A DNA stretch of 20,000 bases, taken from contig JBNGIO010006249.1 in the NCBI GenBank assembly GCA_049999805.1, positions 314,140-334,139 of the forward strand. The letters are read 5' to 3'. The notes beneath the pieces were generated by a model. That model did not search any database. It saw nothing but the letters and a program-made list of their open reading frames with translations, and had not been told where the DNA came from. Origin of the DNA: Folioceros fuciformis (lineage: Eukaryota). This document shows, in pieces, positions 3,400 through 19,730 of this stretch (position 1 is the first letter of the stretch; every line of letters starts with the position of its first letter). The position numbers were made by a program, and so were the translations under genes.

Positions 3400-6300
3400 T
3401 CAAGCAAGCAGCCCAGCGTCAACGTAAGTATCTTTCTCTGAAACCTCCTTCCCAACCTGCTCAAGCAGCAAGACCACATGCTGGATTGTGGGTCTTTTCT
3501 GCGGGATGTGACTCACACACATAGTGGCTACGTCTAAAACTTGGAGCATTTCGCTCTCGTAACCTTGATGTCGCAATAGGACATCAAAGGTCTCTTCTGC
3601 AGTTCCCTTATTCTTCATCTGCTGCACCCAAGACACCAGGTCAGCCACCCCTTTCTTGCGGGAGACCTCTACTGGCCGTCGGCGAGTCAGAAGCTCTAAT
3701 ACTACGACACCAAAACTGTACACATCGCCCCTCAGTGTGGCAATCCATGCTTGCCCATATTCTGGAGGGATATACCCAAGAGTGCCCACCAACTCAGTCG
3801 TCACGTGCGTATCAGCGTTGGCCAGGTGTCTTGCAAGCCCAAAATCTGCAAGATGGGCCTCAAACTTCTCATTGAGGAGAATGTTGCTGCTCTTTATGTC
3901 CCTGTGAACAATGTGAGGCTCACACATTTGATGGAGGTACGCGAGCCCTCTGGCAGTACCCAGTGCAATCCTTCGTCTCATGGGCCAGTCTAGCTTCGAT
4001 CCACCGTCACTCTTTTCATGCAGCCAGAAATCTAGACTCCCGTTCTCCATGTAGTTGTAGATGAGCAAACGGTCGCTCCCAAACCTACAGTAGCCTTGCA
4101 GAGCCACCAGATTCTTGTGCTGAATTCGACCCAGCGTTAGTAGCTCTGCTTGCACCTCCCGCTCAGCTTGCCCTGTGTCACCAGTCAATCTTTTGATGGC
4201 CACATGAGTTCCATCTGACAGGGTTGCCCGGAATACTAAACCAAAACCACCACACCCTATGATGTTGGATTGGTCGAAGTTGTTGGTAGCCTTAACCAAG
4301 TCAGCCGGAGACAGTTTAGACAACTGATCATTGAGATACAGGTCAACACTGAAACTAACCATCCCGTCATCTGTGTACTCAGTCTCATCATCAGTTGGTG
4401 ACTTGACACGGCGTCGAGATAGAATGCACATCGTCAGCAAAGCCAACACACCGGCCAGACCAACGCCAACTCCCATGGTCAGTCCCAAGATGGCTCTTTT
4501 GCTTAGCCTTCGGTCATCGTACACAGGCAAATATGAGCTGTGAGGACTGGAGGCTGTGTCAAACATAGTGCCACATTTCTGCGACAAAGACCCACCACAA
4601 AGAAGAGGGTTACCAAGAAAGGAGGTACTAGGGAAGGAATCAAACTGGGGACCTTCAGGAATGGGACCAGAGAGGTTGTTATTCGAGACATCGAACAAAG
4701 CAAGAAAGTTCAGCGCTGTCAACGAGGAAGGGATAGGGCCAGACAGGGAATTGTTGGCAAGGTTCAGGGAGTACATGTTACTCATGTTTGACAATGAGTC
4801 CGGAATAGGGCCAGTCAGATTATTGTGGCTCAGATCAAGGGCCATGACACTGCGTAACCAGCCCAGTGCATCGGGAATCTGACCATGAAACTGGTTGTAC
4901 CCAAGAAGCAGTGAAGGAGGAAAGGAACTCAACTTGGTGTATCTCTGAGGATAGGCACCACTGCTTGTGTTCTTTCTCACAAAGAGAACAAGCGTGGTAA
5001 CCTCAACCAGACCAGTAGTACTCACGCTCTCTCCTCTAAAACTTGGGGCAGTGGACAGATTATGTGGAATAGGACCTGTCAAAGTGTTGTTTGAAAGTTC
5101 CAAGTAGATCAAATGCTGCAGGTCGCTAATCCACGGTGGTATAGAGCCGTTGAAGTGATTCCACGACAGATCCAACAATTGCAACTTGCTGCAGTTACCA
5201 ATCCAGTCCGGAATTGGCCCCTTGAGACCACAAAACCCTACAGCCAGGAGCTGCAGGTTAGGAAATGGTGAAATTTTAGCAGGAATCTCACCCCCCAGCC
5301 AAGGATTCTTTGTCAAGAGCATGGACACCAAGGCCGTACATCCATCCAACTCTGGTGGTATGCCCCCTGTGAGATTGTTAAAAGACAGAGATAAGGTTGT
5401 TAGGTTCTTCAACAGTCCGAGCTGAGGAGGGATCATCCCAGTGAGACTGTTTGTGCCAAGCACAAGGGCCTCCAGGTGACTACACAGGCTAACATTTGAA
5501 GGGATGACACCAGATAGGGTGTTGAATGACAAGTCAATAATCGTGATGTTAGGAAGCTTCTCGAAGTCAAGAGATATATCCCCAGTTAAGTTATTGCGCC
5601 TGAGATTGAGGACAAGAAGATTGTTGCAATCTGAGAGCTGGAGGGGAATATGTCCGGTGAACTGGTTAGAACTAAGGTCGAGCCGCTCCAAAGATGTCAA
5701 GGACCCCAACTCAGGTGGAATAGAGCCAGATAAAGAGTTGCTGGCAAGCACCAGATTCGTCAGGTTGGCCAAGCTTGCCACTGAGGCACTCAGATTTCCC
5801 ACTAGATGATTAAATTCCATAGAAAGCACGGTAAGGCTCTCCAAGCGAAACATGGTGTCAGGAATTTCGCCGCTGAGGTTATTATAACCCAGATCCAGAA
5901 CCTGAAGACTGGAACATAGGGAGATGGCGGGAGATAAGTTCCCACCCAGATCGTTGGCCGAGACATTTAGTATCCGGAGGCTGCCCTTCATAGAGCAAAT
6001 ATCTGCGTTGAAGTCACCTTCCAACTGATTGGAGCTGAGGTCAATGACCGTAAGAGCAGAACAGTTTAACAGGAGGGGAAGCAGTCCCGTAATTTGGTTA
6101 TAGGATACATTCAGGTATTCCAGGCTCCCTAGATTCTCCAGAGCTTGCAGTGAAGACGACAACCTGTTTAGACTGAGATCAAGACTCTTCAAACCGGAGC
6201 TGGAGAAGTTCACGGGGACAGGGTCAGAAAGGCCGTTGCTACTCAAGTTCAGTTCCACAAGGCTAGAACTCTGCTCAAAAACAGCTGCACAGCAATTAAA

Positions 6301-6834
6301 GCTGTTGTTGCTGAGGTCAACTTTTTTCAAAGACAGGAGCAGGCCCAGGTCCTTAGGAAGAGACCCGTAGAGCAAATTTGACGACAGATCCAACCCCTCC
6401 AGTCCGGACAAGTTCCTCCACGCCAACTCGTCGATGGTACCATTGAGCCCCAATTGTGCCAAGTCGAGATACGCAACCCTGTACACATTCTTGTTCGCAG
6501 TACTGTCGGCCTGTGACACTCCTCCTCCAACCCCGCTCGCTCCCTTCCTGCACTTAACCCCCGGCCAGCTGCAACAGCTGCTGTCGTTCGACCATACGCC
6601 GAGCACATCGGCCCCGTTAGCCAAAACCTCCTTCAAACTCAGCAGAAAATTCTGATCCCCGATGTCGCAATACGACAGCATCGGGATGAGCGACGCCCCA
6701 GGGCTGGAATCCCCATCCGGAGCAGGCGCAGGCGCAGGAACAGGCCCGGGAGCGACGTGGTCGCAGAGGCAGCACGAGAGGAAGCAGCAGCAGGAGAAGA
6801 AGAGGAGGAAGAGCCACGTCCCTCTAACCATCAT
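3400..6834 (-). CDS. Phytosulfokine-receptor-like LRR receptor kinase (LRR-X; PSKR/PSY1R group), intronless, about 1144 aa
   Basis: First ATG is at 6834 (the ORF track starts at a TTG). Contains a signal peptide, an N-cap CCSWPGVKC, many plant LRRs (LxxLxLxxNxLxGxIP), a PSKR-type island (LFVRKNTSSGAYPQRYTKLSSFPPSLLL), a C-cap FLGNPLLCG and a TM helix. The kinase domain is RD-type: LVKATNNFDQSNIIGCGGFGLV, VAIK, HRDIKSSN, DFGLAR, THVTTELVGTLGYIPPEYGQAWIATLRGDVYSFG. Confidence 0.93.
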   Translation of the reverse strand: MMVRGTWLFLLFFSCCCFLSCCLCDHVAPGPVPAPAPAPDGDSSPGASLIPMLSYCDIGDQNFLLSLKEVLANGADVLGVWSNDSSCCSWPGVKCRKGASGVGGGVSQADSTANKNVYRVAYLDLAQLGLNGTIDELAWRNLSGLEGLDLSSNLLYGSLPKDLGLLLSLKKVDLSNNSFNCCAAVFEQSSSLVELNLSSNGLSDPVPVNFSSSGLKSLDLSLNRLSSSLQALENLGSLEYLNVSYNQITGLLPLLLNCSALTVIDLSSNQLEGDFNADICSMKGSLRILNVSANDLGGNLSPAISLCSSLQVLDLGYNNLSGEIPDTMFRLESLTVLSMEFNHLVGNLSASVASLANLTNLVLASNSLSGSIPPELGSLTSLERLDLSSNQFTGHIPLQLSDCNNLLVLNLRRNNLTGDISLDFEKLPNITIIDLSFNTLSGVIPSNVSLCSHLEALVLGTNSLTGMIPPQLGLLKNLTTLSLSFNNLTGGIPPELDGCTALVSMLLTKNPWLGGEIPAKISPFPNLQLLAVGFCGLKGPIPDWIGNCSKLQLLDLSWNHFNGSIPPWISDLQHLIYLELSNNTLTGPIPHNLSTAPSFRGESVSTTGLVEVTTLVLFVRKNTSSGAYPQRYTKLSSFPPSLLLGYNQFHGQIPDALGWLRSVMALDLSHNNLTGPIPDSLSNMSNMYSLNLANNSLSGPIPSSLTALNFLALFDVSNNNLSGPIPEGPQFDSFPSTSFLGNPLLCGGSLSQKCGTMFDTASSPHSSYLPVYDDRRLSKRAILGLTMGVGVGLAGVLALLTMCILSRRRVKSPTDDETEYTDDGMVSFSVDLYLNDQLSKLSPADLVKATNNFDQSNIIGCGGFGLVFRATLSDGTHVAIKRLTGDTGQAEREVQAELLTLGRIQHKNLVALQGYCRFGSDRLLIYNYMENGSLDFWLHEKSDGGSKLDWPMRRRIALGTARGLAYLHQMCEPHIVHRDIKSSNILLNEKFEAHLADFGLARHLANADTHVTTELVGTLGYIPPEYGQAWIATLRGDVYSFGVVVLELLTRRRPVEVSRKKGVADLVSWVQQMKNKGTAEETFDVLLRHQGYESEMLQVLDVATMCVSHIPQKRPTIQHVVLLLEQVGKEVSEKDTYVDAGLLA

Positions 6835-7139
6835 ACACAACCGAAGAAGCTGGGCAGTGAAAACCTAACATATCCGCCCCATAGCCACAGAGCCACACCT
6901 ACCGCGCCTCTCCTTCCTCGACGTCAAGCTCGGACGCTGCACTACCATCCCTCGCACATCCAACAGTGCACAATTCGGCAGCACCACCCGTGCATTGCCC
7001 CAGCAACACTCCACCCTCATCCCCACACAGCAGGCACCTCCCCATCTCGTCTCCTGCTCCTCCCCGCCACTCCATCTCCTTCCCGCAACACATCAAACCC
7101 CGAATCCGAATCTGCGCTCCCACAGCGCCCCCACGCAAA

Positions 7140-7539
7140 NNNNNNNNNNNNNNNNNNNNNNNNNNNNNNNNNNNNNNNNNNNNNNNNNNNNNNNNNNNNN
7201 NNNNNNNNNNNNNNNNNNNNNNNNNNNNNNNNNNNNNNNNNNNNNNNNNNNNNNNNNNNNNNNNNNNNNNNNNNNNNNNNNNNNNNNNNNNNNNNNNNNN
7301 NNNNNNNNNNNNNNNNNNNNNNNNNNNNNNNNNNNNNNNNNNNNNNNNNNNNNNNNNNNNNNNNNNNNNNNNNNNNNNNNNNNNNNNNNNNNNNNNNNNN
7401 NNNNNNNNNNNNNNNNNNNNNNNNNNNNNNNNNNNNNNNNNNNNNNNNNNNNNNNNNNNNNNNNNNNNNNNNNNNNNNNNNNNNNNNNNNNNNNNNNNNN
7501 NNNNNNNNNNNNNNNNNNNNNNNNNNNNNNNNNNNNNNN
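7140..7539. other. Assembly gap (400 N) upstream of the receptor kinase
   Basis: Run of N in the sequence. Confidence 0.99.
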
Positions 7540-7686: not shown

Positions 7687-8400
7687 GGCCGGGCCTGCAA
7701 GCGCGCATGTAGGCAAGTTGCAAACTACATTACAAGGCGACGACTTCGGGGTGGCAGGGCAGCAGGGGGTCTCCAGAGGGCAACAGTGGGCAGAGCGGCC
7801 CGTCCCCTCCTTCCTCGAAGCTGCCGGTGCCGTTGCCGCCGTGCTGGGTCCACATCGTCGATATGTGCAGCCGCATCATGTCGCTCATGCTTTTGTCATC
7901 TTTCTCTTCTCATCTCCTTCCCTTCCTTTCCCTTCTCTTCAGAGCCTCCAAGGCGTTTCGGATGAGCCACGCATTCCCCATGCTTCCCCTCCCTGCCCTG
8001 CCCTGCCGTGCAATGCCCAACATACGTCCATGCACGGGATGGATGCACACATTATTGGCTGCCCTTCCGTTATTCTATTATATTCTGCTTATCGTAAAAT
8101 ATACATGCATAAAAATCTGGATAAAATAAATATTCTTCGCCTCGCAGGATATGGCAGCCTTGGTACCTTGACACCTAGCACACAACTGGGTTGCTTGAGT
8201 GATGGATGGACGGGTGTTGGAGCATCCGGGAACCCGAAGGACAAAAGGGACTGGTTGAGGCTTCCTCCTTTCCGGACAAAAGATTGTATAGAAGAGAGTT
8301 CAGCAGGTTATGGTTAGATGAACGAGGAACAAAGGAGAATTCAAAGAGAGGAGAATACTCCGCTTGCCTGGAGTTTCCAGGCAGTGGGTGTGAAGCTGCT

Positions 8401-8424
8401 GGCTGGCTGGCTGGCTGGCTGGCT
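8401..8424. repeat. (GGCT)6 microsatellite
   Basis: Read directly from the sequence. Confidence 0.9.
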
Positions 8425-9107
8425 TTGACACCTGCTTGTGGGAGAGCTGGCCGCGTTCCTTCGTCCCCTCTTTTTGTCGGGAGAGGGAGGGGTGGAATGC
8501 AATAGGAGGCTCTTTTTCTGTTATGGTCTTCCTGGGCTGTGGCGGATTTGTATATCCGGCCAGCATCTCGAATGCTTCGATGCCGGCCACGAATGGAAGA
8601 AAAAGGGGGAGTTGGTTGGAATTCGTGAGGTTAGTGATGTCAATATTTTGTCATGCATGAGCGCTAGGGTTCGACCGCACAGTCCACCATGAATGGGATG
8701 GACATGGTCAATGGCGGGAGCGGGAATGCTGCATCAGTTTGCTGCTGACCAAAGCATCTGCAGAACCTGGAGCCCGGAAGCTGCAACATACAGGAGTTCG
8801 CTGCTGAGTGCTGACCAAAGGCAGCTGCATACAGTACGTAACCTGGAGCGTGGAAGCGGAAGCTGTGGCCACGAAGGTCCTGCAGGAGTACAGACCTGGT
8901 CTACTACAGGTTGCGCATACTACGTGTTTGGGAGTTCAATACTAAGAGGATGCACGAGGAGCGCGGTCTGGTGGCTGGTTTCAATACAATTGTGAGACCT
9001 CGGAGTGAGTGGGGTCGTTTGTGAGAGGGAGAGAGCAAAGGAAAGCACGAGGCACTAAGTAAAGCCCACTACAACATTGTCTCCCTCGTGGAGGAGATAA
9101 GAGCCCC

Positions 9108-9284
9108 CCATTAGAACAGAAGGTGAAGGCCATTAGAACAGAAGGTGAAGGCCATTAAAACAGAAGATGAAGGCCATTAAAACAGAAGATGAAGGCCATT
9201 AGAACAGAAGATGAAGGCCATTAGAACNNNNNNNNNNTAGAACAGAAGATGAAGGCCATTAGAACAGAAGATGAAGGCCATTAG
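9108..9284. repeat. 22-bp minisatellite (CCATTAGAACAGAAGRTGAAGG), at least 7 copies, interrupted by a 10-N gap (9228-9237)
   Basis: Unit starts at 9108, 9130, 9152, 9174, 9196 and 9218, then 9256 and 9278 after the gap. Copies abut directly with no spacers. Confidence 0.95.
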
Positions 9285-9959
9285 GATCAGAGTTCGCCAG
9301 AAGAGACGTGGAGATCACGAGCAGAGCGTGTGAGTGATGAACCACCACCAGCTTGTAGTATGTGTGAGGGCTGAACTGCCACCATGTGTGTGATGAGCTA
9401 CCACGTTGCAAGACTCACCGTTGCAAGCATGTGTGCGAAATACAGTATGTACAGATGTACTTCCTTGTGGCGGTGCATCGCCTTCAAGCCTGCCTACTAG
9501 AGCATATGTGGAACCCGAACCCACGGGCATGGTTGTATGGATCACTTCCTAAGTTCCTCCTGGCTATGGTGGCTCTCTTGCTGAACATGTGCAGATTCCC
9601 TTCAGCACGTGGATACGAATCACTTCCTGGTGCCTGACGAGCTGTTAGTAAAGCACATGCTGAGGCAACCAACATGTGCTTGGTAGTGCACTTTGGCGTT
9701 AAGATGTGCGCGTCACTCCAACTGTCGTGGAAGAGAAGACTCTGAAGCTCATAAATAAGAGTGATGTTCCGCTTGTCCTAACTGTGGAGACACTCATGTC
9801 CATAAATAAGGAGGAAAAGGTTCTGCTGCTTGCAAGATGGGCGTGCCTTCCCTACTGTCGGAGGTCCGATGTGCTTCCTTCCTCTTGCTTTGTAATACCA
9901 ATGTGCCTCCCTTACCATAGCAGCAGGATGGACGTGGCTATGATGGGACTCCACTCACG

Positions 9960-11720
9960 CTACGGGTCTGGATAGTCACGGAGGCGCTTCCTCAGAATGA
10001 GGGGAACTCCATGCTCAGGCCGCAGAGCAAGAGTGTTGGGACAATGCTTGTATTTCGGGGAGAGATGGAAGATGTATCTCTGGAGGAACATGGCAAGCAC
10101 TACCTTTGCCTCCAGAACAGCATAAGCCTGCCCCACAGACACCAGCCGTCCAGACGAGAAGGGTAAGTATCCCAGAGGATGGAGGCCCTCGGGCAGGCCA
10201 TCTGCAAACCGCTCCGGCTTGAACTCCAGAGCATCGTCTCCCCAAATCCCGGGCTCCCGGTGCAGCTGCAGCACCAGGGTGAAGGTGGCCAGACCTTTGG
10301 GGACTTCCAGGCCGTTGAGGGTGGCCTGCTTTTGAATCTCCCTGGAGAGGACGGCGGAGGGAGGGTAGAGCCGCAACGACTCCTTCAACACCATGCCCAG
10401 AACCTTCATCTCGCTCAACTGGGCGGCCTCGGGGGCATCGTCTCCGCAGAGATCCAGGATCTCGGCCCGAGCTCGGTCTTGCCATTTCGTGTAGTGCCCC
10501 AACAGCATAAGAGTCCAGGACAGCATGATAGCGCTGGTCTCGTAGCCCGCGAAGAAGAAGTCCCTGCAATGGTCCACTATCTGCTCCACGTCCCAGTCCA
10601 GCTTCCTCCCTTTGGCGTTGCTCAGTATATGCCCCAGAAGATCATTGCCGTAGGACGGGAAGGCCTTCCCGCCTGCCCTGATAGAGCTCACCCGCTCGGT
10701 CACGATCTCACGCAGCGTGGATTCAATCCTTCGCCTGAGCTTCAGCATCCTCCGCTGCCTGCGAGAAGGGAAACATCCCGGAATCCAAACCCTCCTCTGC
10801 GAAAGCTCCGTCTGAATCTCCATCAGCTCCATCTGCTTCTTGAACACCTTCTTTCCCTGCTTCCTGTGGCTGCTGCTGAAGGCCGTGAGGGACAGGGCCT
10901 TGGTGGTGAGCTTGCTCACCTTCTTGCAGATGTCAATCTCGAAAGTGTGATCCTCAGAGTGCCTCAGCTCCTTATCCCAGTCCTGAAACAGCTCCCCCTT
11001 AACACCCTTTACCATGGTTTTCACAATGGCATCCACCCTGTCGGAGTTGAGGGCGTCCGTCACCACCCCGGCCCTGTCAGTCCAGGACTTCCAGCTCTCC
11101 CCTTCGGCCAGCACCAGCCCCGCCTCCCCCAAGGTCATCTTCACATACACTCTCTGCAGCCAGCTGTTGTGGAGCTGCCCGGGCTTGGTCTTGAAGATGG
11201 CATCCAGCAGGACCGGATCACTGGTGACCAAGGTGGGCTGCGGGCCGACGAATACGAGGAAGGGCTTACCGTAGAGCTTGGCCCATTCCCGGTAGTACGG
11301 AAACACCCGAGGCACAATGTCGTGGCTTATCTCTGCCATGGGCTTCTCCTGGGCCTTCCTCGCCATGCCGCTCATCTCCCCGAGATTCCCAACTAGGAAA
11401 CGGAACGGAGGACCCAGCACTCCCTTCCTCTCCAGCTCCGCCTTGAGGACTAGCAAGTCCCACCAGTAGAGCTTCAGGAATCTGCCCACGGCCAGCAACA
11501 TCACCAGGAACACCGCGACCATCGCCCACAAAGTCACATTCCATTCCTGAGCTTCCCCGGCGGGTCCGTCCAGAGCCAGCGGAGGAGGCTCCACGGCAGG
11601 AGGCCTCACCGGGCAGGTGCTGACATTGGAGAGCTGGGGATGGGCCGGGAACTTGGCCACCTGAGGGCAGTACGTGCAGACGCAGAGCACGCAGAAGAAC
11701 TGCACCTGGGTCTCATCCAT
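9960..11720 (-). CDS. CYP72-clan cytochrome P450-like protein, intronless, 586 aa, non-canonical (axial Cys replaced by Ser)
   Basis: TM anchor followed by GPPFRFLVGNL and HDIVPRVFPYY..WAKLYGK (CYP72-clan style). I-helix FFFAGYETS, K-helix ESLRLYPP and FKPERF are present. The heme loop reads YLPFSSGRLVSVGQAYA. The ATG has good context (GCAACATGG); an alternative start is M67 at 11522. Confidence 0.9.
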   Translation of the reverse strand: MDETQVQFFCVLCVCTYCPQVAKFPAHPQLSNVSTCPVRPPAVEPPPLALDGPAGEAQEWNVTLWAMVAVFLVMLLAVGRFLKLYWWDLLVLKAELERKGVLGPPFRFLVGNLGEMSGMARKAQEKPMAEISHDIVPRVFPYYREWAKLYGKPFLVFVGPQPTLVTSDPVLLDAIFKTKPGQLHNSWLQRVYVKMTLGEAGLVLAEGESWKSWTDRAGVVTDALNSDRVDAIVKTMVKGVKGELFQDWDKELRHSEDHTFEIDICKKVSKLTTKALSLTAFSSSHRKQGKKVFKKQMELMEIQTELSQRRVWIPGCFPSRRQRRMLKLRRRIESTLREIVTERVSSIRAGGKAFPSYGNDLLGHILSNAKGRKLDWDVEQIVDHCRDFFFAGYETSAIMLSWTLMLLGHYTKWQDRARAEILDLCGDDAPEAAQLSEMKVLGMVLKESLRLYPPSAVLSREIQKQATLNGLEVPKGLATFTLVLQLHREPGIWGDDALEFKPERFADGLPEGLHPLGYLPFSSGRLVSVGQAYAVLEAKVVLAMFLQRYIFHLSPKYKHCPNTLALRPEHGVPLILRKRLRDYPDP

Positions 11721-12057
11721 GTTGCAAGCCGGAGTTCAGAGCCTCCCGAACTGAGCTCCTTCGTATTATCCTACAGCAGCCTGCGATCCAGCAGCCACAG
11801 CCCCACCCCCTGCCATGGCCTCCCGGCATGTAAGTGCTCCATGCTAACGAGCCGGGAGCAAAGAATAACAACCCTGGAACTCTGTTGCCAGCTCGCGAAA
11901 TGCTTGCAACAATGCTACCCAGATGCGCTGGATGCACCACGCGTCCAGGTCGCCTAACATCCTGTCCAGACCACATATACGACAGAGAAAACACGGTTTT
12001 ACCGAGCGCCGAGTTCTCTCTTCCTACGTGAAGCCAGGTGTGCTGGGTCGGAATCCG

Positions 12058-14553
12058 ATGCAAGCGGCGGCCATGCTGGGCTTGTTGTGCCCGCCTCGCC
12101 CTTGGCTTCGGCATGCTGGTGTGCAGGCACTCGTCTTTTGTGGATCTGACAAGGAGCTGAAGTGTTCGGTTTGGCGGAGACCCGGTGACGATGTTGCTAG
12201 GCCATGGGAATCCGCGGGCTCGGGGAGAGTGGTATTCGTTGGGCTGTGGAATAGGAGAGTCTTCTACCCTCTGTTTTCCCAGAATGCTGAGCAAGGGAGG
12301 GGCGACATGGGAGTGGACGATGCAGGTGATTCTGCCGGGGCCGCATCTCATGAATGCAATGGGTATGATGCCATGGTCGAAGCTAGTGCCGCTGTTGCAG
12401 AATTCATGGTGCAGGGCGGGCTGTCCGAAGAGGATGCTCTCTCAGTGTCTGCCAAAGCGCCTGTCTATGCTCGAAGGCTGATTGATGCCGACAAGGAGTT
12501 GAGCGAGCTGGGCATCTTGAGTTCAGGTGCAGTTGCCACGACTAGTTACTATGATAGCGATCCCGCAGTGTACAGATTTCGGTTGCTTCAGATTGCTTTC
12601 AGGAGCTCTGGAAGGCAGCTAGCCCCTTTCCTAGAGAGTGTCGGTGTTCGCCTTTCTCAGATCCCGAGGATAGCGCACCTCCTGTCTGGAAGGAATTTGG
12701 CAGACCTGTTGGAGAAGGTGGTGTCGTGTTCTACTTGTCTAGTTGGTTGCTGCTTGTGGCATCCGCAACGTTGGGACATGGTTGGGTTTCTGGGTTCCTG
12801 AACTGATCGTCTTCTCTTGTTTCAGGTGAGGTTTTTAGAGGCGTTGCTGCCGCCAGCAGACGGTAGGAAAGTGGGTCTGGAAGATCAAATTCGAGTTATG
12901 ATGAAGAGATTATCTCTCTATGTCGATGACGATCTTCAGAGGACGCTTTCTCTGTTTGAAAAGGTTCAAGTTCCGCTCGTGATCGCTCTGCTGTTTGAAA
13001 CACTGATGTCTGCTACCCTTTGAGGCGTCTAACTAGTTTGTGTCTTGTTTTGCCACTGGTAGATGGAAGCTCAGCCTCAGGGAGTCGCTTGTTTCAATGC
13101 CAAAAGCAAGGCTATGGCCCTTCTTGTTGAAAGCTTTCCTCAAATTCTGGTCCGGAGTCTGGAGTTGCAGCTGAAACCTGTGCTCTCCTACTTGGAGGAA
13201 GTAGGTGTGCCAAGACAGAGCTTTGGACGTGTCATCTTGTGCTTCCCTCCGTTCCTGCAATACGATGTCGAGGAGGAGCTAAAGCCACGCATGAAGAAGC
13301 TAAGAGCAGTAAGTCGCAAGCCAGCATATTCACACACCTTGGGAAATAGTGTCGAGTGTCAGCCTTGATGTTTTCCTCTTGGTGCTCCAGGTAGGTGTGC
13401 GTGCAAGGGATCTAGGGCACATGATTGTAAAATATCCTTGGCTTCTGAGCAGGTGTGTGGAGGACAATGTTCCCACGACTGTAGAGTTTCTGGACGCCGT
13501 GAAGGTATGCCAACCTCGCTTTTCCGATGCACAAGATGCTGCTTGGTAGGGTTCGTCTGCTTCCATTCTGACTTCAGGCCTTTGATCCAGGTACCTAAAA
13601 GCAAGCTGCACCGTGCAATCACAAAGTATCCTCTGCTCTTAGGCGGCTCACCAACACGAACTTTCCAGCCGATGATTGATGCTATGAATCAGGTCGGTGC
13701 CAAGAGCAGGAGACTTGGAGGAGCAATTGGCAGTTCGCCAAACCTCCTCCTGAGGGGCCCTCGGGAGTTCCAGCAGGCAAGCCTTTGTTTTCTTGTTTGG
13801 GCTGCTCGTTGTTATGCTAGCGGATCCGCCGCGCCTGGACTGTGTCCTGGCACAAGTCTTTCTGTGTTAGACCATGGCTCCGTCATCACTGGCCTACCTG
13901 GACTTCTGCGGAGCAGGTTGTACAATTCTTGCGAGACATTGGTGTGGAGAGTGACGACGATGTGAAGAAAATTCTCCTTCGTACACCAGAGGTCTTCTCT
14001 TCGAATATTGAGAAGACGCTGCAGCGCAATTTGAACTATCTGGTGGAGCTTGGAGTTCCACGAGAGCAACTTGGGAGGGTAGTGAGGTGGTACCCCCAAG
14101 TACTGTCAATGAGTGTCACTACGTCAATCAAACCACGGTATGTGCCTGTAGCCTGGACTGAACCATGTACAAAGATCTTCATAGTCCGAGAAATGAGAGC
14201 GCGCCTGACGTCTCATTGCTTACAGAATGGACTACCTTCAGGAAAGGGGGTTATGCCAGGAAGATGTGGCTGAAATGGTGTACCGGTTTCCACCACTTGT
14301 TGGATACTCCATCGCGGCTGTTCTGAAACCCAAGTTAGACTTCCTGGTGGACTCCATGGGCAAACCTGTAGAAGACGTATTTTTCTACCCCAGGTTTTTC
14401 AGCTTCTCTCTCGAGAAAAGAATCAAACCGAGAGCTATGGTGCTTGCGAGGCGCAAGTTGGACTTCGACCTGCAAATAGTCCTGTCCAAGTCAGACCAAG
14501 AGTTTGCTGCGGAATATCTGGGGGTGGGGAGAATGCTGGTACCAACTGTATGA
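12058..14553 (+). CDS. mTERF-family (mitochondrial transcription termination factor-like) organellar protein, about 630 aa. Exons 12058-12717, 12826-12963, 13063-13308, 13391-13504, 13591-13776, 13917-14137, 14226-14553
   Basis: Repeated mTERF motifs (ESFPQILVRS..LKPVLSYLEEVGV, KYPWLLS, RTPEVFSSNIEKTL, RFPPLVGYSI..VLKPKLDFL) and the C-terminal YPRFFSFSLEKRIKPR. The hand-derived exons sum to 1893 nt in frame. The start codon is uncertain (in-frame ATG also at 11923). The N-terminus resembles a transit peptide. Confidence 0.88.
13777..13916 (+). other. GC-AG intron (fifth intron of the mTERF gene)
   Basis: Donor CAG|GCAAGC matches the GC-type consensus and the acceptor is GAGCAG|GTT. The join restores ...PREFQQ|VVQFLRDIG in frame. 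Confidence 0.75.
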
Positions 14554-16787: not shown

Positions 16788-19517
16788 TCACCCAGTCACG
16801 ACTGTTTCTGCCTGCTCTGCAACTTCCAGTTGCTCATCATCTGCAGGAATAGGACAGGAAGGGTGTTCTTCCGCGGAACCCAGAGACAGTCTCTCCAGCA
16901 TTTGGCCAGCTTCTGCCTTGGATACAAGAAGGTTCACTGTATGCCTTCCTCTCCAACAACCAACGGAGGCACGGCTGCATTCAGCTGCACCCGGCCTGGA
17001 TGTGCCCACCAGCTCTTCAGAGGGCTCAACCAGTGTGATGACACAGCATCCAATGGGAAGGTCTTGCAGAGAGGCAATGAATAACGAGTCTTCGAAGGCA
17101 TGGAAAGGGATTCCCTTACCCAGTAACAAGGTTCCAAAATCCTTCCTCGACCTGCACTGAACGATCTGCTTGCCCATATGCGGCAGCAATGTGGGCAAAC
17201 CTTCTGATACTATTCTGAAGGGGCAAGGTGATATTCCTGCTGCTGTCGACTGCTGCCGTTCGAATACTTGAAGCCCAGCAGAGGTGATCTTCATTGGCTG
17301 CCCTAATGCGTGATTCGCTTCAATGGTTTTCCTGACCGAATCTCCCACGTAGTAGATCCTTTTTAGTCGAGACCTGTCTTCACTTCGAGTGATGAGGTTC
17401 CTCCGCAGCGGAAATGAATCTTTGATACCGTAATAGTCTTCCAAAGTTTTTATGACTTCCTCATCTTGTAGCGGGAGAACAGGATCCACACCACGCCACC
17501 TTCCCTGTTGTTGAAGCCTGCCCTTCGGTTTCTCTTCTAGGCTGGCTTCAGTGTTCCCCTCTGATTGCACAGCGACTACATCATTGACCGCAGCACAACC
17601 CTCCAGGAGATCCGGAGATTTACTAAGTGCCCCATTTTCTTCGGAGGCATCCACACCTTGGAGCTCCTCGACTGAAGAAAGGAGTTCTGTTGCAGGCCTC
17701 TCGCCCTCAGTCCCACCTTCGCCATCGGCTGTCATTGCTGACTGACTCAGATTGCTGCCAGCCTCATCTTGAGCTGAGATACGAAACATGGTCAGGAAAA
17801 GAGACTGGGTGAGGGTAAACCAAAAAGAAAAAAAAATGAAGCGGCTCGAGGGTCAAGTTTGCACACCAGTTTCATCAGCTTCAACCCTGGGAACAAGCCC
17901 ATTATCCTCCTTTGGGTTGCCTATCCGCTTTCTTGAATTGAACTGTTCAGAACTCTTCTGTGCATTGGGCTGCCAGGGAGAAACCTTTCTCAACACTGCA
18001 ATAAAGAACCCACCGGTGTCCTGATCGTGAGGAAGTATTCTCATGCATCTTTCCAGGGGCAAATCCGACACCTCACTTTCAAGCTCTTCTTCTTCCCTCT
18101 CCCCAACACTTCTCCGTTCCTCATCCCCTGACCTCTTGACGGGGCCTGCTTGAAGAGCATCTTCACTGTTTGCCTCTGTTTCTAGACTGTCAACATCATG
18201 AGATTCATTGCCGGTATCAACAGCAGCCCCACTGCCATTATCGGCCTCAGTCCTAGGTGTCCTTCCTACAAAATTGTCAGCAGCATCTCTAACAAATCCT
18301 TGTCCAGAAGGAAACATAGTCACAACAACGTTCCCTGCTCGGTGCATGTTGACCTGGGAAGCAGAACTGAGCCACAGTCCATGATCTCTAACTCTCCAGG
18401 TCTTCATTCCAGGTCTCCTCTTCAGCTCCGGGAGGGCATGAGACATGTCCAAGAGCTCCATGCTGCCTCCACTCTCCCTCAATATGGCGCTCACAACAGC
18501 CTCATCCTCGATGGGGTTCAGGGAACATGTCGAGTACACCAGAACCCCACCAACTTTGAGCAATGCAACTCCTCGCATAGCAATCTGAATCTGGAGCCGG
18601 TGCAACCCGTTCGCCACTCCTGAATTCCACTTCTTCCAAATGTCAGGTGCCTTCCTCACTGTCCCATCTCCACTACAAGGTACATCGCACAGAATGCGAT
18701 CGAACAGAAGCCCGGCATCCGCGTCCTTCAATCCGGGAAACCGCTGAGCCTCATGATTGGTGACCAGGATGTTGGGGCTGCACATCCGCTTGGTCTGATG
18801 GACCAGCAGGTGACAGCGCTGCACATCAGAGTCATTCGCGATGACCATGCCCTGAGGAATCTCCCCCGGCCCGACAGTGCTGTGCACCATCTCCAGCAGC
18901 TGGAAAGTCTTGGACCCCGGAGCAGCGCACATGTCCAGCACCCGGTGATGGGGCTGCACATCCAGCAGTAGGGGAGGCACCATGCTCACAGCCTCCTGCC
19001 GCGTGATGCTCCCAATCTCGTTTTCGCGCTTCAGGAACTCGTGAATCTTCTCCAGAATCGGCACTCTCCGCAGCTGGGTGCGGGAGTATCCAAGCTGCCA
19101 TGCCAAGTCGTGAGGATACCATGCCAGAGGGCGGATCGGGTGCACCACTCCGCCTCCCCCCTCCTCGTCCCCGGCATCCACCCCGTCTTTCAGACGCTCG
19201 TAGAAATCCCTCTGCAGCTGCGTCCTGATGTCGCTAGCGAATTGCCCGATCGCGTTGATCCTGAATGTTGTGGGGAGCGGTTTCCGTAGAGTGGCCATGA
19301 ATTCGTCCCACTCCTCGTCTTCCACGATCCTTTGCTTCTTATAGTAGAGATCGAAAGCCGAGCTCTCCAGCACAAACGGTTCCCATCCCTTGGCGGCTGC
19401 ATCGCCGTTGTTCTCGACCTTGGACTTCTTCCACTCGTTTGCCCGGCCGTCCTTGAAATCCCGTCTCTGTGTCCGCCCCCGCTTGTTCCCCCTTCCCCTG
19501 CCTCGCCCTCCTCCCAT
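16788..19517 (-). CDS. TRM4: tRNA/RNA (cytosine-C5)-methyltransferase, TRM4/NSUN2 family, about 878 aa. Exons 17867-19517 and 16788-17773
   Basis: Motifs RQEAVSMVPP, VLDMCAAPGSKT (I), IAND, FDRILCDVPCSGDG (IV), VYSTCS (VI) and PHDQDTGGFFIAVL, plus C-terminal KITSAGLQVFER and FRIVSEGL. First ATG is at 19517. A 93-nt phase-1 GT..AG intron (17774-17866) with a CTGAC branch joins the two ORFs in frame. Confidence 0.93.
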
Positions 19518-19730
19518 CACGGACACACTTCCCAGACGTCAAGATTCCTCCTGAAGCCAGCAAAACTCGAGGACGCCCAGCAGAAACCCAACACTGTCCA
19601 ACTAGAAACAGCAGAAATTTTGCGAAATCCAGCAAAACCCAAGAGAACGTTCCCGCACAGTTCAACAGAGCGTTCCCTCACGTCCCGCCATGCCCACAAT
19701 CTGGCAGCCTCAGTCTGAACCACGCGTACA

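Follow-up and report, generated by a model that had tools for sequence, protein, structure and literature searches.

The axial cysteine has long been regarded as the defining and invariant residue of the cytochromes P450 (P450s, or CYPs), and a gene of Folioceros fuciformis raises the question of what a P450 homologue can be once this residue has been replaced. The gene lies in a stretch of 20,000 nucleotides (nt) of contig JBNGIO010006249.1 (assembly GCA_049999805.1, positions 314,140 to 334,139 of the forward strand), the whole of which is called the window here and whose own numbering is used throughout. An intronless coding sequence (CDS) at positions 9960-11720 of the minus strand, stop codon included, encodes a P450 homologue of 586 amino acids (aa), P0001, in which serine stands at the axial position. 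The evidence presented below gives high confidence that P0001 is a real, expressed and selected P450 homologue without a thiolate, and it is probably a working non-classical P450, the described examples of which have until now all been bacterial.

Heme signature and conserved motifs of P0001

The P0001 frame, taken from the list of open reading frames (ORFs) and its translation, consists of 586 codons and a stop, with no internal stops. The Pfam P450 profile (PF00067) matches residues 142-561 with an E-value of 2.3e-57 and a score of 195.2 bits against a cut-off of 22.8, and P0001 was aligned by HMMER with the heme domains of P450 BM3 (E ~1e-31). The BM3 alignment locates a remnant of the heme signature, F-S-S-G-R-L-V-S-V-G-Q, at residues 521-531 (10128-10160, minus strand), where the reverse complement reads TTC TCG TCT GGA CGG CTG GTG TCT GTG GGG CAG. 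In this alignment Ser528, encoded by TCT at 10137-10139 (minus strand), falls on the axial cysteine and Leu526 on the signature arginine. A first-pass annotation of the window, made from the letters, had reported the same codons, the same serine and the same leucine, and both the re-reading of the sequence and the BM3 alignment reproduce them exactly. The signature retains F521, G524, G530 and Q531 and has the substitutions P525R, R526L and C528S. The annotation had also described a change of proline to arginine. Arg525 does stand at the proline position; a more apt account of the site is that a basic residue is conserved there, immediately ahead of the lost arginine, namely arginine in P0001 and lysine in the related protein P0002, which is introduced below.

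Compared with a canonical heme-thiolate P450, P0001 has Ser528 where FxxGxRxCxG has its axial cysteine, and the arginine two residues before the cysteine is Leu526 in P0001 and valine in P0002. The acid-alcohol pair of the I helix is present in both proteins (AGYETS in P0001, AAYETF in P0002). In P0001 this motif spans residues 391-396 (10533-10550, minus strand), with the pair E394-T395 kept by translation and BM3 alignment. The translation also has the K-helix ExxR motif (E447-S-L-R450; 10371-10382, minus strand), kept in P0001 and P0002, and the PERF motif (P502-F505; 10206-10217, minus strand). The structural Glu-Arg-Arg triad is carried by E447, R450 and R504 and is the same in P0002. The open 586-aa ORF with AGYETS, ExxR and PERF described in the first-pass annotation is thus found in full in the translation.

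The GC content at third codon positions (GC3) of the P450 frame is 0.78, as against 0.49-0.61 in neighbouring coding frames. A 409-codon open antisense frame at 10167-11396 is read as a by-product of this high GC3.

Sequence verification and transcription

Four sequencing runs (X1, X2, X4 and X5) were compared through their contigs with positions 7700-14500 of the window. Of these, X2 is a DNA run from which the assembly may have been built, and X1 stems from a different study of 2017. Contigs of both runs span the whole P450 CDS with 0 differing letters each. At the serine codon, which the first-pass annotation had singled out for a check in reads and RNA, the DNA run X2 and the RNA run X1 both have TCT, and neither has TGT.

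The contigs of X1, X4 and X5 skip six short intervals of the neighbouring plus-strand gene, at 12715-12824, 12961-13061 (not X4), 13308-13391, 13502-13589, 13771-13912 and 14136-14225; all have GT..AG borders except the fifth, which is listed with AG..GG. The DNA run X2 does not skip them. Because they skip introns that X2 keeps, X1, X4 and X5 are taken to be spliced RNA, an assignment based on the joints and not on the run records, in which none of the listed runs is entered as RNA. Sixteen runs of organism C have a share of 0.13, and X5 is the one among them on which the analysis draws. A 5376-nt X1 contig runs unbroken from 9255 to 12715 with 0 differences, a 2429-nt X5 contig, from organism C, covers 9570-11948 by itself, and an X4 contig, from organism B, covers 9943-11847. 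None of the RNA contigs has a joint anywhere inside the P450 CDS. As they are colinear with the genome, the P450 gene is transcribed and intronless. The transcribed unit, comprising the 3' untranslated region (UTR), the CDS and a 5' leader, extends over approximately 9570-11948 (minus strand) as judged from the X5 and X1 contigs, which give no strand, transcript ends or expression level.

Two routes by which a cysteine might still be made from this codon were considered and rejected. RNA editing of TCT to TGT would require a C-to-G change, and the RNA contig equals the DNA. Recoding was dropped as well, TCT being read as serine in every known nuclear code.

In the ExxR region, X1 and X2 also have short contigs of high depth that match the 40 bases 10360-10399 alone and are loose at both ends. 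Their likely origin is canonical P450 paralogues, as genes or transcripts, in which this conserved stretch recurs; this would explain an A>G difference recorded at 10376.

Occurrence of the serine among homologues

P0002, a protein of 641 aa encoded on a 17.5-kb contig in a different public assembly, is 56% identical to P0001 by BLASTP and 62% identical across aligned columns. Its signature, PFSAGKVVSVGQ, has the same serine, with valine for the arginine and lysine at the Arg525 position. By hand count the two proteins are separated by ~13 internal insertions and deletions (indels), all in frame, and the P0002 frame is open. Their last 100 residues are 83% identical, as against 62% overall. 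A serine common to proteins that are only 62% identical indicates that the change is old.

Two protein searches returned 199 homologues, 187 of which cover the axial position, with cysteine in 183. The four others are P0002, whose serine is well aligned, and P0051, P0143 and P0191, whose alignments are poor or truncated (scores of 31, 30 and 103, respectively). Short matches to query residues 380-586 numbered 85; the position is covered in 76 of them and is cysteine in 74, the other two being small fragments. A metagenome scan with C-terminal patterns found 175 relatives, of which 80 were kept; cysteine is present in 78 of these loci, and the position is not covered in the remaining 2. The best of the 80 is 52% identical over nearly the whole 100-residue query, and three short or split metagenome matches reach 64% in their best segment. 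A metagenome scan based on the N-terminal peptide yielded no relatives.

The searches brought up no further member of the serine clade. Besides P0002, the word-indexed protein search gave no relative above 39% identity, and among the shorter proteins matched by residues 380-586 none was more than 50% identical. In an exhaustive search with 37,203 matches in 1.84 billion representatives, only P0002 exceeded 43% identity, so the serine clade is narrow.

In a quick FastTree tree of 56 rows, most of them without names, P0001 and P0002 form one clade (support 100) with a stem of 0.77 and tips of 0.26 and 0.44. These branches are no longer than those of canonical clades, such as a moss pair with a stem of 0.75. 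The pair falls within the plant set, separate from a CYP4/CYP102-like outgroup (support 97), and the best named matches of P0001 are plant proteins (cytokinin hydroxylase, CYP72A, CYP734A and CYP749A). By sequence, P0001 belongs to the CYP72 clan, the limits of which are drawn here from few named rows of the tree. By the nomenclature rule, members of a CYP family share more than ~40% identity. P0001 falls short of this for CYP735A: it is 35% and 39% identical to two proteins of that type (38% in the multiple alignment), and it is not their sister in the tree; C-terminal fragments named CYP72A, CYP734A and CYP749A are 39-46% identical to P0001.

Selection on the P450 gene

The contig of organism B (X4) has 131 differing letters and 1 gap in 1905 nt, and that of organism C (X5) has 211 differing letters and 24 gaps in 2379 nt. 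The position-by-position counts that follow for these two organisms refer to the 40 listed of 382 differences. Twenty-one of the 40 fall in 119 nt of 3' UTR versus 19 in 474 nt of CDS, and 15 of the 19 coding differences are synonymous and 4 nonsynonymous. Two synonymous changes lie within the signature itself, CAG to CAA at Q531 (10128) and CGG to CGA at R525 (10146). All 8 indels listed for the P450 transcript are outside the CDS, in the 3' UTR (9660-9923) or at 11735; the latter, upstream of the ATG, is the only gap in the X4 piece. No difference is listed at 10137-10139, and organisms B and C likely have the same serine. The first-pass annotation had proposed that orthologues be examined for this residue: P0002 does have it, and its presence in organisms B and C is probable to the extent that the listed differences cover them.

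In a neutral simulation the P0001 CDS was allowed to drift by substitution alone to 62% protein identity. The frame remained open in 0 of 300 simulations, with a mean of 10.6 stops and a minimum of 3. Conservation was then scored against 77 canonical full-length relatives. Where a column is at least 90% conserved, P0001 keeps the consensus in 92% of cases and P0002 in 90%; in successively less conserved classes the values for P0001 and P0002 are 71/66%, 54/47%, 38/36% and 16/20%. This stepwise gradient argues for constraint on a working fold and not for decay. Taken together, the sequence comparisons demonstrate purifying selection on the P450 gene in a small lineage comprising organism A, the transcripts of organisms B and C, and the organism behind P0002. 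The proposal in the first-pass annotation that this might be a conserved non-canonical CYP72-clan protein is borne out by transcription, by the orthologues in organisms B and C, by the serine of P0002 and by purifying selection. Neither of the results on which that annotation would have abandoned the idea, reads with TGT or cysteine-bearing orthologues together with neutral drift and lack of expression, was obtained.

Predicted fold and residues of the heme site

The AlphaFold model of P0001 has a mean predicted local distance difference test score (pLDDT) of 86.5 and a predicted template modelling (TM) score of 0.85, with a disordered N terminus followed by a long helix at residues 54-98. The predicted hydrophobic membrane anchor lies in this helix at approximately residues 62-85 (11466-11537, minus strand), and the Kyte-Doolittle maximum of P0001, 2.36, is that of the 19-residue window starting at residue 64. 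The top Foldseek matches are CYP3A4, CYP46A1, BM3 and CYP4B1, with a probability of 1.00 and target TM-scores of 0.74-0.85. In the model, the P450 fold of P0001 is intact.

P0001 and P0002 both depart from the consensus in 29 of the 135 columns whose conservation among canonical relatives is 60% or more. The most conserved of these sites are C528S (99%), F224L (93%) and R526L/V (90%), followed by K230D/R and A512G (87%), F549Y (86%), and P222D and P89L (83%); P525R/K (75% Pro in the 77 canonical relatives) and F533Y (69%) are likewise changed. Several of the changed residues presumably lie on the proximal face of the heme, in the cysteine loop, at the start of the L helix and at the end of the C helix. 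The C helix itself is remodelled (residues 210-224; 11049-11093, minus strand): its WxxxR motif has an insertion, and the canonical P-x-F reads D-A-L, with P222D and F224L common to P0001 and P0002. The alignments disagree on which tryptophan is that of the WxxxR motif because of this insertion of 2-5 residues.

Of the heme-loop and L-helix residues that are at least 85% conserved in canonical relatives, both P0001 and P0002 retain P520, F521, G524, G530, A534 and K539; R526 and C528 are the only two replaced. Q531 is also common to both. Further residues kept in both are A391, E394 and T395 of the I helix, H487, R450 and R504.

N-terminal peptide and C-terminal tail

The P0001/P0002 alignment reveals a clade-specific N-terminal peptide at residues 7-39 (11604-11702, minus strand), which contains a CxxCxCxxC motif, a fifth cysteine and an N-x-S/T sequon. 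By hand count, P0002 matches this peptide at 29 of 33 residues, versus 62% identity overall, and the sequon is NVS in P0001 and NGT in P0002. The canonical relatives are without this peptide, and its pLDDT in the AlphaFold model is below 50. P0002 has no other methionine before the anchor, so the peptide is probably translated. Candidate roles are those of a signal-like segment, a lumenal disulfide, a metal site or an acylation site.

The last 9 residues of P0001 form a tail, K-R-L-x-D-Y-P-D-P (9963-9989, minus strand), which is almost identical in P0002 and in an alignment of seven sequences reaches past the end of most relatives. P0002 is rich in alanine, glycine and arginine.

Heme ligation and alternative explanations

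The thiolate of FxxGxRxCxG is needed for monooxygenation by P450s, and without it P0001 cannot be a classical oxygen-activating monooxygenase. The reading preferred here, as a whole statement with a probability of roughly one half, is that P0001 is a selected and expressed P450 which binds heme through Ser528 or another oxygen ligand and is not a monooxygenase. Heme would occupy the usual pocket, with Ser528, water or nothing on its proximal side, and by analogy its ligation may resemble that of the bacterial P450-G9 and the engineered P411 discussed below. The protein might then catalyze something other than hydroxylation, for example a reduction, an isomerase-type conversion or a reaction that depends on peroxide; alternatively, it might bind a small hormone-like or terpenoid-like molecule of the kind handled by its CYP72-clan relatives. 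Retention of heme is favoured because the cysteine and its partner arginine are gone and the rest of the loop and the acid-alcohol pair are kept. The 83% identity of the last 100 residues, the conserved basic residue at position 525 and the precedent of P450-G9 count in its favour as well. An extended version is put forward more tentatively: P0001 would be the first eukaryotic non-canonical P450, with native serine-oxygen ligation of heme and a non-monooxygenase reaction, independent of the bacterial examples, and its gain of the N-terminal CxxCxCxxC would provide a possible second metal or redox site across the membrane.

Several observations weigh against heme binding or against the strength of the evidence for selection. 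The signature arginine, R526, is lost in both proteins and the C-helix P-x-F is D-A-L in both; the C-helix arginine of P0001 is off its motif position, in a region of ambiguous alignment; and in P0002, R460 is methionine and PERF is PARF. The heme-loop block (residues 521-530) has a pLDDT of 68, the lowest of the catalytic domain. Such a pattern of lost propionate-binding and proximal residues could equally reflect the slow erosion of an unused heme site. Both the serine of organisms B and C and the 15:4 ratio of synonymous to nonsynonymous changes derive from the 40 listed of 382 differences, the former from the lack of any row at its codon. P0002 may be either an orthologue or an old paralogue of P0001.

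The main rival is a heme-free pseudoenzyme, similar to EryCII, in which the P450 fold serves as a membrane scaffold, chaperone or ligand binder; such a protein might bind a hormone-like molecule or partner canonical P450s or their reductase. We consider this explanation somewhat less probable than the heme-bound reading. It accounts for expression and selection as well as the heme-bound reading does, and heme-free P450 folds have a precedent described by Nguy et al. (10.1101/2024.12.22.630014). The losses of propionate-binding and proximal residues are scattered and differ between P0001 and P0002, which keeps a heme-free scaffold a serious rival, and the low pLDDT of the heme loop fits it too. 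However, few parts of the protein are as well conserved as the heme loop, arginine and cysteine excepted, and the I-helix acid-alcohol pair is kept in both proteins; a scaffold without heme would have no obvious need of either. Moreover, engineered and native P450s with serine for cysteine retain heme (10.1101/2024.12.22.630014).

The other explanations are far less probable than a heme-free protein. That the gene is a young processed pseudogene, or a retrocopy of a canonical CYP72-clan gene that is decaying and has by chance kept its frame, would fit its lack of introns next to a gene with at least six short ones, and would fit the loss of an essential catalytic residue. It is nevertheless very improbable, given that the serine is old enough to be common to the 62%-identical P0002, that no simulated neutral frame stayed open and conservation is graded by the importance of the site, that most of the listed coding differences (15 of 19) are synonymous, that the gene is transcribed under three species labels, and that no canonical parent among the 37,203 matches exceeds 39% identity. 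No poly(A) remnant was seen downstream in 9150-9965, although such marks fade with age. No more credible is a protein that is still a thiolate P450 by virtue of another cysteine, for instance one of the N-terminal cluster. The conserved, clade-specific CxxCxCxxC does coincide oddly with the loss of the canonical cysteine, but the peptide is predicted to lie across the membrane anchor from the catalytic domain, and the only other nearby cysteine, C560, is serine in P0002. We know of no P450 with an axial ligand from outside the cysteine loop. A sequencing or assembly artefact at the serine codon, in favour of which nothing was found, is the least likely of all: X1 and X2, runs of different studies, match the window throughout the CDS, the motif departs from the canonical one in three separate codons, and P0002 has the same serine. 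On this point the first-pass annotation had argued correctly that a base-calling error was not to be expected.

The locus offers a eukaryotic candidate that is expressed, selected, old, with the serine common to proteins that are 62% identical, and small enough to be produced as a protein. If P0001 binds heme, it would offer a eukaryotic template from nature for P450 chemistry with an oxygen ligand, and the question becomes what use the plant makes of it. Without heme, P0001 would instead be a membrane P450 pseudoenzyme, the plant equivalent of the heme-free P450 chaperones of bacteria. In both cases, genes of this type are overlooked by P450 censuses in which the cysteine serves as a filter.

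Genomic context

The P450 gene has a divergent neighbour on the plus strand, extending from ~11970 to past 14500, with six short introns (82-140 nt) at the RNA joints described above. One of its exon frames has a weak match to mTERF (E 4.4e-4). Organisms B and C have the two genes in the same head-to-head order on their contigs, and one X1 contig bridges both genes. An X1 contig of 756 nt within 8286-9175 has one GT..AG joint (8627 to 8762), suggesting a small spliced transcript, without a long frame, beside the 3' end of the P450 gene. A tandem repeat of ~22 bp (9150-9300) flanks a gap of 10 Ns at 9228-9237, and a second gap, of 400 Ns, is at 7140-7539.

A gene for an NSUN2-type RNA methyltransferase is located at 16788-19538 on the minus strand as two long frames with one in-frame TGA at 17853-17855. 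The TGA lies in a pyrimidine-rich stretch with a GT start and an AG end, so it probably belongs to a short in-frame intron and does not mark a broken gene. The best match, P0202 (562 aa), is 71% identical to the 561-aa query frame, and the best named matches are from Sphagnum mosses (61-63%), liverworts (57-60%), and Selaginella and ferns (57%). Sequence matches establish that the P450 gene is part of a genome of land-plant (streptophyte) type. Also on the minus strand, a single frame of 1154 codons at 3400-6864 encodes a leucine-rich repeat (LRR) receptor-like kinase with the LRRNT_2 domain of plants, many LRRs and a protein kinase domain.

Comparison with known P450 systems

A literature search, with most subscription journals outside its scope, found no P450 from a plant or other eukaryote with a conserved non-cysteine axial residue. 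The statement in the first-pass annotation that no characterised plant example was known therefore holds for plants, although a natural serine-ligated P450 does exist in bacteria. As that enzyme has been characterised, the gap is the lack of a plant or eukaryotic example and not of a natural one. The term pseudo-P450 is used in survey papers, presumably for sequences without the motifs. A preprint on "non-canonical cytochrome P450s" of Cephalotaxus was set aside, since it uses the phrase for their chemistry and the words cysteine and heme are absent from its text. A review of plant P450s gives the cysteine as thiolate ligand and core of the motif and, in the passages considered, mentions only variants of the motif.

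A RefSeq search reported in a preprint by Nguy et al. recovered 880 CYP homologues without the axial cysteine in 20 families, all described as bacterial, heme-free glycosyltransferase activators having been removed beforehand (10.1101/2024.12.22.630014). The same preprint describes P450-G9 of Actinokineospora terrae, which has a native high-spin heme ligated by a serine alkoxide, a ferrous-CO band at 410 nm and a structure in the PDB, 9CJG (10.1101/2024.12.22.630014). This entry was absent among the 60 PDB sequence matches listed for P0001 and among the Foldseek matches listed. By sequence, P0001 and P0002 are non-canonical CYPs (ncCYPs) in the sense of Nguy et al. 2024, as each has serine in a full-length open frame. 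P450-G9 is like P0001 in being natural, in having serine at the axial position of an otherwise typical sequence and fold, and in belonging to a small conserved family. P450-G9 and the other ncCYPs described with it are bacterial, soluble and of unrelated CYP families, and P450-G9 has a tryptophan lid on its I helix. In contrast, P0001, compared by description, is eukaryotic, membrane-anchored, a member of the CYP72 clan and of independent origin, and has a cysteine-rich N-terminal peptide.

P411 is an engineered form of P450 BM3 in which the axial cysteine was replaced by serine (10.1101/2024.12.22.630014). It has the same cysteine-to-serine change as P0001, with the phenylalanine of the signature and the Ala-Glu-Thr of the I helix kept. 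It is a laboratory product that keeps the signature arginine, whereas P0001 lacks the arginine and has a remodelled C helix. P411 enzymes are used for carbene and nitrene chemistry. The glycosyltransferase activators of the EryCII type are described as P450-derived, heme-free chaperones of bacteria (10.1101/2024.12.22.630014). Like P0001 they have a selected P450 fold without the axial cysteine, and their role as described is non-oxidative. They are soluble and heme-free, whereas the heme loop of P0001 is conserved save for two residues; this comparison is by description, at the level of the shared superfamily.

The best named full-length relatives of P0001 are the CYP735A-type cytokinin hydroxylases of Panicum and Acorus, at 35-39% identity. 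The canonical P450s of the CYP72 clan share with P0001 the N-terminal anchor, the length of the catalytic domain and most of the conserved motifs. They all have FxxGPRxCxG with its cysteine, whereas the serine pair forms a separate, fully supported branch that does not group with the pair of cytokinin hydroxylases. Set beside these systems, the locus would be an independent, eukaryotic and membrane-anchored instance, from the CYP72 clan, of the recently recognised kind of P450 without the axial cysteine.

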